Positions 49,862 to 52,712 of a stretch of 64,000 bases of DNA are shown piece after piece. The position numbers and the translations under genes were made by a program. Origin of the DNA: Candidatus Hermodarchaeota archaeon (GTDB taxonomy: Archaea; Asgardarchaeota; Hermodarchaeia; Hermodarchaeales; Hermodarchaeaceae); NCBI GenBank assembly GCA_016839805.1, contig JAEOTO010000003.1:1-64000 (forward strand), written 5' to 3'. The notes below the pieces were generated by a model. It saw nothing but the letters and a program-made list of their open reading frames with translations. It was not told the origin of the DNA and searched no databases. Every line of letters begins with the position of its first letter. The stretch's first letter is position 1.

Positions 49862-49976
49862 GCCGCGGTAGCCAAGTGGTTTACGGCGCAGGCCTGGAAT
49901 TCATTCAATCGTGGAGGAAAACCAAACAGCCTGTGACCTTCGGGTCTCATGGGTTCGAATCCCATCCGCGGCGCCA
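49862..49976 (+). tRNA. tRNA-Ser(GGA) with 28-nt intron at 37/38 (49900-49927); CCA encoded
   Basis: Acceptor GCCGCGG/CCGCGGC-G-CCA, anticodon stem CAGGC/GCCTG, loop CT-GGA-A^A, long variable arm GACC-TTCG-GGTC, T-arm GGTTCGAATCC. Confidence 0.95.
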
Positions 49977-49999: not shown

Positions 50000-52675
50000 T
50001 TAAGACTTACGTTTCCAGGCTGGAGGATAGGTTCCAGCAGGGATTACAACTCGCATTGTTTTTGCCACTATTCCCGAAGAAGCTTTGAGTATTTGTTGCG
50101 TTGATTGTTGCGCTATTGCCAAAGCAACGAGCTCAGTTTTAATGGTTAGAATAGCAACGGTATCTCCCGGTTTTATGTCATCATGGAGTTGCAGCACACC
50201 TGCCACAGCTAGGTTGGCACCATGGCATAATGCATCGACTGCTGTGTCTCGAATTACAATTTGAGGCAGGTGAGCCACGCCATCCTCCAAAGGGTGTAGA
50301 ATCAGACGGAGAGGTTGCTGGTCTTTCTCCTCTTGCCAGAAATGATAGGCATCGACTACATCATAGAGAGTTGCTAAGGTGGAATCTTCTTTGAAGGGTC
50401 CGGTTCGAGTGCGGCGAAGTTCAGCCATATGAGCTCCACCCCCAAGAGCTTCTCCAATATCATAGCAATTGCTTACAAACGCAGCACCATTCAATGCAAA
50501 ATTATGATGCTGGTTTACGGTTATATCATAGACATAATCGAAATCTGCAGTTGTTTTTTCAACCGCTTTGATTTCGTCCAGAAAGTATTTTGCATTTACT
50601 TGATTTTTCAATGCAATTAGGTCGAAATCGTTCTTAGGCACTACTTTTTGTAATGATTTGACTATTTTTGATAAAATCAGTCTGGTTGGTCTTTTACCTG
50701 TCAATAGTTGATTAAATGCTCCTCCTCTGTAAATTGAATTTTTTGATAACCCATATTGCTGAATTAAATTTTTGATATGGGTTACGCATGATATGGGCAT
50801 TAAGTCTTGTGAGCCATATGATTTGTATCGTGAAAAACGTGTTTCAAATTGCTTAATCTTTTTTTGTTTCTTAGGGTGTTTACATTTCATTAATTGGGAA
50901 AACCGAATTTTGTCAAAAGGCGATTTAATTATCACATGGTATTTTGGAGTTTTTCCACTCTCATCAAAGGTTGAACCTAGTCTTTCATATATCTTTGAAC
51001 GTATTCCAAGGCGTTTTAGTAGTAGAGCTAGTTGAACTGCAATATGATAAAAAGCTGTGTCGTATGCGATCTCTGTGTAAGGTGAATTCGTTTTAATAGT
51101 AACTGTTCCATCGCCATCAAAGTATCCTGACATGAAGTTTGAAATCATATCTTTTGAGAGAGAAGAAAGGTTTTCTAAATGCATAGTTTTCTTTGGACTC
51201 ATAATTCCAAGTTTTTTCGCAATGCCTGCAAGAACGGGATTATTTACCGTCACAAGAAATGTTCCAGAGATTTCTGATTGTCGAATGCTAGTTGCTGGAA
51301 AGAACCGATTTACTGTTTTAATGAAATATTGAATGAGTTTACTTTCTTGGTTGGTAAAAATTACCCTCGTAGGTCGTATGCATTTCTTTTCTTGGACCAC
51401 ACTACCATCAGACGCCACCAAACCTAGTAAGAATAGAAGTTCGGAATTAATTTTCTTCTCTGAAATTGAATAGTAAGCACCTCTCTCGCCTTTGAACGCT
51501 TCAACCATCTCGCAAACTGAAGTCCAATCTAGTCTAGTTTCCTCACAAACTTGGCGAAGATACTTAATTCGAATACCCATTCCTGTTTGGAGAAAGACTC
51601 GCCTGTCTATTCCAAGAATCCTACAGGCTTTTGTTACACTGCCAAACGCTTCTGAAAGGAATTTCTTGCATTGTTTTTTCAGTTCGTTTCCAAGGCAAAG
51701 GAAGTCCTGATCTAAAAGCTCTAGAAGATATGGGATTTTCTCATTTTTTTGAGTTAATTCTCGGGGGCTGAAAAGAAAGTTTCCTGGAACGATGTCTTCT
51801 GCATCTTTCAATAAAGGACCTTTGATATCATCAACTAGTATTTCATGGTCAGGAGTAACTTGGAGTCTAAGACCCGAATCAAGTTTGAGCCTGACCATTT
51901 CAGAAGGCGCTGGTAATTTTTGGACTGCGGTGATGGAGGAAGATTCAAGTTTGTGGTCGTGAAGATTTAAAGAAAGTGTCTCCAAAAATCCCAAATCTAA
52001 TTTATTGGAATTAGAAGAATCCAACCTTGAATCAACGACCTTCGAGATTTGGTGGAGACCTCCATTTTGTAAAAAGAGAAAAGAAGAGGGAGAAACACAT
52101 AACTTTCTGATGTAGGTTCCAGCTTGACAGCCGACGCGAAATAAGACGTTTTTCTCTTCAATTTCTAAGATATGTATGTAGTAGATTTGACGCGTACGAA
52201 CACGCCGTTTTACTGAGGAGCGAACAGGAGGTCGTTGATAAATCGTTCCTACAAACTCTGCTGCAACCTCACGAATTTTATCTGGAGATTCCTCTTGATG
52301 GAGCCGCATAACACAGACGTATTCTTTACCCGATGTAAGGAGTGCATTAGCAATTTTGGTGGAATTTCCAAGCATAACGGGAAGCACACCAGTGACCTGA
52401 GGGTCCAATGTTCCTGCGTGACCTGCTCGATCTAGACGTAGAATACGTTTTACCCAGGACACTACTTCATGGCTAGTCGGCCCAGGAGGCTTTTCTGGGC
52501 TTGTAAAAGGTCAATAACCTCTTAAAGGCAAGCTATCCAGATTGATGATCCCATCCCGAAATAACTCAGGAATGGTTCGCTCCTGTGGAACACGACCATA
52601 AGCCGGATTCGTAGTATCCTCGGCACGCGTTACCAGTTTCCGTTTCTTATCTGCAGGCAGCCGCGGCTTTGTCAC
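50000..52675 (-). CDS. cbf5: Cbf5 (TruB-family H/ACA pseudouridine synthase): join(52675..52535, 52492..50000), containing an intein
   Basis: GAGGAGG SD then GTG at 52675. Exon 1 ends GIINLD; exon 2 begins [15 protein letters not shown]; [24 protein letters not shown] and PUA domain follow. Confidence 0.95.
50468..52099 (-). mobile_element. Intein (544 aa) with LAGLIDADG homing endonuclease in cbf5
   Basis: N-junction RKL/CVSP; block [10 protein letters not shown]; LLGLVASDG and [10 protein letters not shown]; block F VYDITV..HNF; C-junction VSN/CYD; visibly AT-richer than the exteins. Confidence 0.93.
52493..52534 (-). other. 42-nt bulge-helix-bulge mRNA intron in cbf5
   Basis: CTGG-AT^A-GCTTG...CAAGC-CCAG-AA^A. 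Cutting after the second nt of each 3-nt bulge restores GAT-AAG (D-K). Contains an in-frame TGA. Confidence 0.9.
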
Positions 52676-52712
52676 ACTGAGGACCTCCTCAACCCCATCA
52701 CAGGGGGCTCAG

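Follow-up and report, generated by a model that had tools for sequence, protein, structure and literature searches.

A probable tRNA-type intron splits motif I of cbf5 in one genus of Asgard archaea

How does an archaeon make full-length Cbf5 from a gene that a stop codon divides in two? Cbf5 is an essential rRNA and tRNA pseudouridine synthase. The window analysed here is a 64,000-nucleotide stretch of contig JAEOTO010000003.1, from a Candidatus Hermodarchaeota archaeon, and it carries cbf5 on the minus strand. In a mechanical ORF list the long, 820-aa cbf5 frame begins at 52462, as the preliminary description had said of its ORF track. The same list holds a separate 54-aa ORF with a GTG start, 52675..52511, which reads ...RDGIINLD and then runs into TGA. 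Direct reading places GGAGGT 7 nt before the GTG at 52675, which we take as the cbf5 start. The locus comprises the following features.

52683..52690, minus strand: Shine-Dalgarno-like GAGGAGGT, 7 nt upstream of the cbf5 GTG start (direct sequence reading)
52535..52675, minus strand: cbf5 exon 1, 47 codons from the GTG start to ...GIINLD; its final six bases are CUGGAU
52540-52537, minus strand: CUGG, the exonic strand of the predicted central helix, at the end of cbf5 exon 1
52493..52534, minus strand: putative 42-nt intron of cbf5, of bulge-helix-bulge (BHB) type in its HBh' form (fold and cross-species comparison)
52100..52492, minus strand: first part of cbf5 exon 2, from KPPGPTSHE... via the catalytic GHAGTLDP to GTYIRKL, ending at the intein
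50468..52099, minus strand: 544-residue intein in the cbf5 frame, Cys1 ... Ser-Asn, Cys+1 (ORF translation and NCBIfam)
50000..50467, minus strand: C-terminal extein of cbf5, with the PUA domain and stop codon (translation and NCBIfam profile)

The 42-nt insert separates the codons GAT (Asp) and AAG (Lys) of NLD/KP, in motif I, and contains an in-frame TGA at 52513-52511 of the minus strand. Taking it out joins NLD to the downstream Cbf5 and gives a protein colinear with the intron-less Cbf5 of the sister genus. The preliminary description had read a Shine-Dalgarno-preceded GTG at 52675, a normal N-terminus to GIINLD, 42 nt with an in-frame TGA and then KPPGPTSHE, and this reading is correct to the base. 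The NCBIfam Cbf5 equivalog matches the exon 2 product from profile position 38 onward, and the catalytic-Asp motif GHAGTLDP is uninterrupted. Both the N- and C-terminal NCBIfam intein domains are matched farther along the frame; long cbf5 frames of 836 aa occur in G000 and G006 only.

The insert is shared throughout the genus. All 14 species with a cbf5 match carry one at the same site, with lengths of 40 nt (four species), 41 nt (four), 42 nt (five) and 43 nt (one). These lengths would shift the frame in 9 of the 14, and the in-frame inserts contain stops.

Comparison of the 14 sequences points to an RNA structure of the BHB class. Its elements, beyond the exonic CUGG, are these.

52533-52529 with 52503-52499, minus strand: inner helix of the putative intron, 5 bp, GCUUG/CAAGC
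52524-52517 with 52511-52504, minus strand: apical stem of the putative intron
52498-52495, minus strand: CCAG, the intronic strand of the central helix
52535/52534 and 52493/52492, minus strand: predicted cuts

CUGG/CCAG, the bulges AUA and AAA, GCUUG/CAAGC and the apical stem together form the minimum-free-energy fold, and RNAalifold predicts the same structure independently from the 14 species; the helices and bulges claimed earlier from one sequence are all present. The fold energy of the single sequence is unremarkable (z = -1.65), so structural support comes from comparison between species and not from energy. All four pairs of the central helix form in 14/14 species, the only changes being U-A to U-G and G-C to G-U. 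The 5' bulge is AUA (ACA in one species) and is flanked by the central and 5-bp inner helices in every species. Compensatory changes affect two pairs of the inner helix, h', and three pairs of the apical 6-7-bp stem, or four with RNAalifold's seventh pair. The observed number of double-change pairs was reached by 0 of 500 shuffles, and sliding the partners by one column lowered pairing from 93.5% to 58-65%. Likewise, none of the 14 species departs from CTG at the Leu codon that belongs to the exonic helix strand, although third positions next to it vary; CTC, ATC, GTG or ATA stands there in the sister genus.

The motif is a relaxed one. The exon-exon outer helix, which the preliminary description had called weak, is in fact absent, and the sole possible U-A pair is broken in 3 of the 14 species. 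The AAA after the central helix is invariant, and no helix h closes it as the 3' bulge of a strict hBHBh' motif. Because the outer helix is absent, we assign the motif to the HBh' form; its 5-bp h' provides the flanking helix of at least two pairs, of which a BHB has at least one. For the same reason the 3' cut would fall in a bulge that is left open, and a broad-specificity endonuclease would be needed for cleavage. A long-range GGA.GG/CCUCC pairing was rejected as an outer helix: its positions do not covary, 3-5 of the 14 species have mismatches in it, and it would also leave a 10/5-nt internal loop. Four central pairs with h' and no h also make up the HBh' tRNA introns, in which Asgard genomes are rich (bioRxiv 10.64898/2026.10.13.758758).

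The predicted cuts restore the protein. In known cbf5 introns the cut separates the second bulge base from the third (PMC2738675). A cut after the second bulge base here yields CUGGAU/AAGCCU and restores the conserved NLDKP junction exactly, in agreement with the earlier proposal that such a cut would rebuild GAT/AAG and with the colinearity of NLD/KP with intron-less Cbf5. Since the intron and exon 2 both begin with A, the splice boundaries can be placed only to within one base.

The genome encodes the enzymes that such splicing would use: a two-subunit EndA (alpha and beta) and the ligase RtcB (571 bits). EndA alpha (186 aa) has the Aeropyrum pernix alpha subunit as its best PDB match (E = 1.7e-45). 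It aligns with this protein (3P1Z_B) gap-free through the specificity loop, where VEKPRG stands opposite IRKPKT, and retains Tyr, His and Lys at the aligned positions; counted from the alignment, the loop Lys is K44 of PMC5829648. EndA beta (198 aa) is without the catalytic His and has a 9-residue gap at the specificity loop. The two subunits are 28% identical, and in profiles of fused enzymes alpha aligns to the C-terminal and beta to the N-terminal half. These alignments indicate that the enzyme belongs to the (alpha-beta)2 class, with a crenarchaeal-type specificity loop on alpha. Most Asgard genomes encode two EndA paralogues (bioRxiv 10.64898/2026.10.13.758758), and an Asgard (alpha-beta)2 EndA with the Crenarchaea-specific loop has been described, the loop being tied to the cutting of relaxed motifs (PMC5829648).

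We consider it highly likely that the insert is an EndA/RtcB-spliced mRNA intron of tRNA type (BHB), gained in this genus. In the pre-mRNA, the 4-bp central helix would arise by pairing of the exon-terminal CUGG with the intronic CCAG. The 3-nt bulge AU/A, set between this helix and the 5-bp intron-intron helix h', would hold the 5' splice site; the 3' splice site would lie at AA/A, two bases past the central helix, within a run of A residues not closed by any exon-exon helix. The (alpha-beta)2 EndA would cut both sites, and RtcB would ligate the exons into CUG GAU AAG CCU, read as ...NLD-KPPGP.... A Cbf5 that combines motif I with the N-terminal 47 residues would be obtainable from spliced mRNA only. 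Because the only cbf5 found is broken by a tRNA-intron-like insert that is kept in 14/14 species, the mRNA very probably needs cutting and ligation by the enzymes of tRNA splicing, with cleavage, ligation and their necessity all predicted from sequence.

Removal of the insert from the RNA by agents other than EndA and RtcB, be it a different nuclease with a ligase or self-processing of the RNA, is very unlikely. The missing outer helix, which would have completed a canonical BHB, is what such a route has in its favor. However, 40-43 nt is far below the size of a group I or group II intron, and both the geometry and the cut-site arithmetic fit the EndA rule. HBh' motifs, moreover, are established substrates of the loop-bearing (alpha-beta)2 EndA (PMC5829648, PMC2738675), and the alpha subunit of this genome has the loop.

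It is slightly less probable still that no splicing takes place, leaving either a split or truncated gene that yields a 54-residue peptide and a Cbf5 begun at, for example, GTG 52462, or a gene in decay. Precisely these two ORFs appear in the mechanical list, but selection on the protein argues otherwise. The exon 1 peptide is kept in the 14 species at a dN/dS of about 0.10 and the exon 2 peptide at about 0.03, and from these low ratios it follows that both are translated in one protein frame. Motif I, placed after the intron but ahead of the first internal start, is conserved as protein in 14/14 species (dN/dS about 0.03). In G000, direct reading finds no start codon between the intron stop and KPPGP. 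The arrangement has been kept through saturated synonymous divergence, with pairwise dS of 1.3-1.75 among these species and thus above 1. The preliminary description had named an intact paralog, with this copy decaying, as a way for its reading to fail. One cbf5/TruB_N locus and no second cbf5 was found in the genome (assembly 86.7% complete), and both exons are under purifying selection.

Translational bypassing is more improbable again. A ribosome would leave the mRNA at GAU, skip the 40-43 nt hairpin, land near GAA and resume at AAG, giving the same NLD-KP product without RNA splicing. The insert is a stable hairpin of roughly the size of the gap bypassed in phage T4 gene 60, and in G000 its 3' end has GAA just before AAG. 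The take-off and landing codons, GAU and GAA, are nevertheless mismatched, and the take-off codon is not followed by a stop. The features frozen across the 14 species (four base pairs between the cuts, the 3-nt bulge, and a synonymous position held constant in the exon strand) are exactly those of an EndA substrate and unneeded for hopping, and BHB introns at another cbf5 site are experimentally known to be spliced in Crenarchaeota (PMC2738675).

An assembly or binning artefact that put 42 nt into an intact gene is a negligible prospect even for a metagenome-assembled draft of 50 contigs, given homologous same-site inserts in 14 species that were assembled separately, an independent study's contig that runs across the cbf5 intron without a gap, and the lack of any intron-less DNA form or joints in the contigs of four runs. 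The artefact that the preliminary description had named as a way to refute its reading is answered by the same species and the same contig. That contig has 8 differences over 364 nt, 4 of them inside the 42-nt intron, all in loops or preserving pairs as G-U. A degenerate spliced-junction pattern, run over public metagenome and metatranscriptome contigs, returned no spliced copy from the genus; its 20 matches are all intron-less cbf5 of other organisms, at <=89% identity to the spliced exons over <=77 nt.

The putative EndA/RtcB-type intron at motif I appears confined to one genus. We did not find the insert in 4 sister-genus genomes, and it is missing from 76 other archaeal best hits. Across 383 Asgard genomes with a cbf5 match, a match that begins near residue 50 occurs, among the matches listed, in this genus only. 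None of the other split Asgard cbf5 genes examined has a motif-I insert; the Asp codon or a contig end accounts for each interruption. Apparent splits in G058, G276 and G114 are such contig ends, and the in-frame TGA of G367 is located at neither cbf5 intron site. A covariance model of the intron, R1, run on 19 genomes of the window's own family, gave one match per genome, in cbf5, with no second copy elsewhere (for example in a tRNA gene) and no match in the sister genus within those 19. EndA-substrate geometry, covariation, out-of-frame length variation and confinement to one genus together fit an independent gain with obligatory splicing. The intron's gain would fall in the stem of the genus, as an event independent of the classical intron in the catalytic Asp codon of cbf5. 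An independent gain had been proposed at the outset, and the different site, the covariation and the confinement to one genus support it.

The motif-I intron parallels the crenarchaeal cbf5 intron of Desulfurococcales and Sulfolobales (Watanabe 2002, Yokobori 2009, PMC2738675) in its host gene and in being short and of BHB type. The crenarchaeal introns are of similar size (33-40-odd nt), with in-frame lengths there too. Their motif is often relaxed, the cut rule is the same, and the presumed enzyme is a broad-specificity hetero-oligomeric EndA, as here. They interrupt the codon of the catalytic Asp in motif II (G/AY; PMC2738675), as the preliminary description had stated in pointing to the intact GHAGTLDP of this gene. 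The motif-I intron occupies a different site, since it falls between the Asp and Lys codons of NLD/KP, about 30 codons upstream of the catalytic Asp codon, and its host is one Asgard genus. Comparing intron position and compensatory changes, a check put forward with the first reading, yields this separate site and pairs that covary over the 14 species. Splicing has been shown experimentally for the crenarchaeal intron and is predicted for the Asgard motif-I intron.

Other Asgard archaea carry the classical cbf5 intron. In our genome sample, at least five further Asgard families have Asp-codon introns in this gene, of BHB type and 27-41 nt long. The three studied closely, L115-L117, fold as complete hBHBh' motifs with an exon-exon helix of 4-5 bp, which the motif-I intron lacks, and the two kinds never co-occur in the genomes examined. 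The preliminary description knew of no Asgard example; this holds for the literature searched, in which we found no paper on Asgard cbf5 introns at either site, but not for the genomes.

Non-canonical archaeal tRNA introns (HBh' in the nomenclature of Marck and Grosjean 2003) share the motif class and the enzymes of the cbf5 intron. The cbf5 intron offers no tRNA body to help the enzyme dock, because its host is an mRNA coding sequence. One putative EndA substrate of the tRNA kind lies in the window itself.

49862..49973, plus strand: tRNA-Ser(GGA) with a 28-nt intron at 37/38 (Rfam tRNA, 48.8 bits)

This tRNA gene is syntenic in both genera. It was found by Rfam alone, ARAGORN reporting no tRNA in 40000-64000. 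Its splice context, CUGGAA^...^AGCCUG, resembles the cbf5 splice site. The exon context alone is shared (CUGGA, AGCCU); inside, the introns vary from species to species and show no resemblance, so we dropped this likeness as evidence and keep it as a lead. A doubtful scenario, to which we give low credence, builds on it: cbf5 may be a recurrent selected target of tRNA-type introns, with at least two independent gains (Asp codon and motif I), and the motif-I intron was perhaps seeded from tRNA-Ser(GGA) by reverse splicing or local gene conversion. If true, production of the pseudouridine synthase would be tied to the activity of the RNA-splicing machinery.

In the literature searched, EndA splicing within an archaeal coding sequence has been described for a single gene and site, the Asp codon of crenarchaeal cbf5. 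The motif-I intron would be a second, independently acquired site in cbf5, in the archaeal group closest to eukaryotes. Taken with the Asp-codon introns of further Asgard families, it suggests repeated gain of mRNA introns of tRNA type. With lengths that vary out of frame, pairs that covary and a synonymous position held constant by RNA pairing, the case is about as strong as evidence of this kind allows. Gene callers start Cbf5 at an internal GTG and so lose 57 residues, motif I among them, an annotation that is corrected here. Because a 544-residue intein also lies in cbf5, an essential RNA-modification enzyme would depend in two species on both RNA splicing and protein splicing.

The cbf5 gene of the window's genome (G000) is very probably interrupted by a bulge-helix-bulge (BHB) intron that the tRNA splicing endonuclease, EndA, removes from the mRNA. 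The gene lies on the minus strand, closing the usual secY-adk-DUF106-cmk-L14e block, and its 5' part reads as follows.

Exon 1: from 52675, minus strand; opens at GTG with GGAGGT 7 nt upstream; 47 codons to ...RDGIINLD.
Intron: 52534-52493, minus strand; 42 nt, reading SLPLRGY-stop-PFTSPE in frame.

Exon 2 resumes the same frame after the 42 nt and carries two Cbf5 motifs, the conserved motif I and the catalytic motif II (GHAGTLDP). Direct translation confirmed the preliminary description: a Shine-Dalgarno-preceded GTG leads to GIINLD, followed by 42 extra nucleotides with an in-frame TGA and then KPPGPTSHE. The ORF track does begin Cbf5 at 52462; mechanically called, it holds a 54-aa ORF from the upstream GTG and a separate 820-aa ORF from the internal one. 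The NCBIfam Cbf5 equivalog is matched by the protein from KPPGP onward, beginning at profile position 38, so the missing N-terminus comes from exon 1. In G000 the stretch from the intron's stop to KPPGP contains no start codon. Annotation from the internal GTG 52462 (minus strand) loses 57 residues, those of exon 1 and ten more.

The insert recurs throughout the window's genus (g1). The proposed alignment of Asgard cbf5 genes places it at the identical position in each of the 14 g1 species that gave a cbf5 match, with compensatory changes; the fifteenth g1 genome, G013 (74% complete), gave no cbf5 match and stands outside this count. The closest named records by protein identity are Promethearchaeota MAGs (84-88%) and 'Candidatus Hermodarchaeota YT1_014' (76%), which the genome collection assigns to g2, the sister genus with intron-less cbf5; the host is an Asgard archaeon, as stated.

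Covariation across the 14 species supports a specific RNA fold. The central, inner and apical helices previously described appear in the G000 minimum-free-energy fold (energy unremarkable, z = -1.65) and in the alignment. In the central helix, exon CUGG pairs with intron CCAG, CCGG or CUAG in every cell, and the 3-nt bulge is AUA (ACA in one species). Two pairs of the 5-bp inner helix change in compensation, such as C-G becoming U-A by way of U-G, or U-A becoming C-G, as do three of the apical helix. None of 500 shuffles reached the observed count of double-change pairs, and pairing fell from 93.5% to 58-65% when the 3' partners were slid by one column. RNAalifold, run unconstrained on the intron with 6 and 2 bases of flank, recovered this structure too, with 6 compensatory pairs. 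The exonic strand consists of CTG for Leu and the G that begins the Asp codon; it is invariant in 14/14 while neighbouring third positions vary freely, and g2 has CTC, ATC, GTG or ATA at the corresponding codon. Pairing in the RNA has frozen this synonymous site. The outer helix between the exons, earlier called weak, is absent, its sole possible U-A pair being broken in three of 14 species. A distant GGA.GG/CCUCC pairing, tried as the outer helix, showed no covariation and was rejected. By standard naming the motif is HBh', four central pairs and an intron helix without an exon helix, a class counted as canonical in a recent Asgard tRNA-intron census (bioRxiv 10.64898/2026.10.13.758758).

G000 encodes both EndA and the ligase RtcB. 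Two EndA paralogues, alpha (186 aa) and beta (198 aa), lie on other contigs and are 28% identical. Among solved structures, alpha matches best the Aeropyrum pernix heterotetramer's alpha subunit (E = 1.7e-45), aligned gap-free through the Crenarchaea-specific loop and including the Lys corresponding to K44; beta has a 9-residue gap at the loop and lacks the catalytic His. The loop is reported for the (alpha-beta)2 EndA of Asgard archaea and accompanies cleavage of relaxed motifs (PMC5829648), and relaxed-motif recognition outside the tRNA context characterizes the crenarchaeal heterotetramer (PMC2738675). A motif-I cbf5 intron is mechanistically expected. The splicing pathway is needed anyway, since an intron-bearing tRNA gene adjoins cbf5.

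tRNA-Ser(GGA): 49862-49973, plus strand; Rfam match missed by ARAGORN, with a 28-nt intron at 37/38, convergent to cbf5 and 27 nt beyond its stop codon.

This tRNA is syntenic in g1 and g2. The cbf5 splice context, CUGGAU^...^AAGCCU, is similar to that of the tRNA, CUGGAA^...^AGCCUG; most species show no relation between the two intron interiors, and a covariance model of the cbf5 intron found no match at the tRNA. The likeness is a possible clue to the origin of the cbf5 intron, a lead and not evidence.

The known cutting rule rebuilds an uninterrupted Cbf5. In cbf5 introns the cut falls between the second and third bulge base (PMC2738675). Applied to both bulges, the rule bounds the insert at exactly 52493-52534 and joins CUGGAU to AAGCCU, yielding ...NLD-KPPGP..., in register with intron-less g2 Cbf5 at every residue; cleavage after bulge nucleotide 2 does restore GAT/AAG, as proposed. 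Intron and exon 2 both start with A, and shifting both cuts one base 3' leaves the product unchanged; the arithmetic fits the rule and does not alone prove it. Processing by an unknown non-EndA route is very unlikely, and nothing calls for one.

Both exons are conserved as protein. Over 45 codons on each side, exon 1 has a dN/dS of ~0.10 and exon 2 one of ~0.03 (pairwise dS 1.3-1.75, saturated). Under the same cutting rule the g1 inserts measure 40, 41, 42 or 43 nt; nine of the 14 lengths are not divisible by three, leaving the exons in different frames, and all five 42-nt inserts contain stop codons. RNA-level removal is the only simple route from both exons to one protein. A truncated or split Cbf5 made without splicing is at odds with purifying selection on exon 1 and motif I, and is less probable still. 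Lower again stands a ribosome hop from GAU to GAA, which would give the identical protein; it lacks a matched landing codon and leaves the conservation of EndA-specific geometry unexplained. An assembly artefact is practically excluded by the 14 species and by a contig from a different study, gap-free over 52300-52663 with 8 substitutions, four of them inside the intron, where they fall in loops or keep a G-U pair; none of the four runs showed an intron-less DNA joint. Only one TruB_N/Cbf5 locus, and no intact paralogue, was found in G000 (86.7% complete).

The motif-I intron is restricted to g1. Its covariance model matches exactly once per g1 genome, always at cbf5, and nowhere in g2. In a phylum sample of 400 genomes, 383 had a cbf5 match; among the matches listed, a set that leaves out 331, only g1 genes start at about residue 50 of the intron-less query, and the lower-scoring splits examined lie at the Asp codon or contig ends. 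Among the 80 best archaeal matches in the genome collection, only three MAGs, g1 by sequence, carry the insert. A single gain in the g1 stem is the most parsimonious history; this restriction and a site distinct from the Asp codon support the independent gain first suggested. The source sample (run X1, with loose ends at 52492) also contains an intron-less cbf5 with upstream sequence like that of g2 gene L014, so that g1 and g2 apparently share this sediment.

Other Asgard archaea carry cbf5 introns at the classical position. The crenarchaeal intron splits the catalytic Asp codon after its first base (PMC2738675), whereas that codon is intact here (GHAGTLDP), which bears out what the preliminary description said of motif II. 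Its remark that no Asgard example was known agrees with our literature search, which found no paper reporting one, but fails for the genomes: in the 400-genome sample, at least five other Asgard families (f7, f12, f15, f22, f33) have Asp-codon inserts of 27-41 nt, reading GTL-E...N-PKVTG, i.e. G/AT.

Asp-codon insert loci: L113-L117, L130, L131, L138 and L139, in genomes G024, G034, G029, G039, G037, G312, G129, G128 and G041.
Asp-codon insert in G399: by match coordinates only.

The three examined in detail (L115-L117) fold as full hBHBh', with a 4-5-bp exon-exon helix, unlike the motif-I intron. With both positions occupied in Asgard archaea, their cbf5 has at least two intron sites, never together in the genomes examined. 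Motif I is the lineage-restricted, newly placed one; site and lineage are new, while the kind, an EndA-spliced BHB intron in archaeal mRNA, is already known.

The intron bears on how Cbf5 is annotated and made. Open cbf5 frames span 264-335 aa in g1 versus 340-349 aa in intron-less g2, and mis-annotation at an internal start is expected for all 14 g1 species. The G000 gene also contains a 544-residue intein (50468-52099, minus strand) between GTYIRKL and an 11-residue segment, with ends Cys1 ... Ser-Asn/Cys+1 and matches to the NCBIfam intein N- and C-terminal domains. Within g1, the long intein-bearing frame occurs only in G000 and G006, where Cbf5 production would require both RNA splicing and protein splicing.
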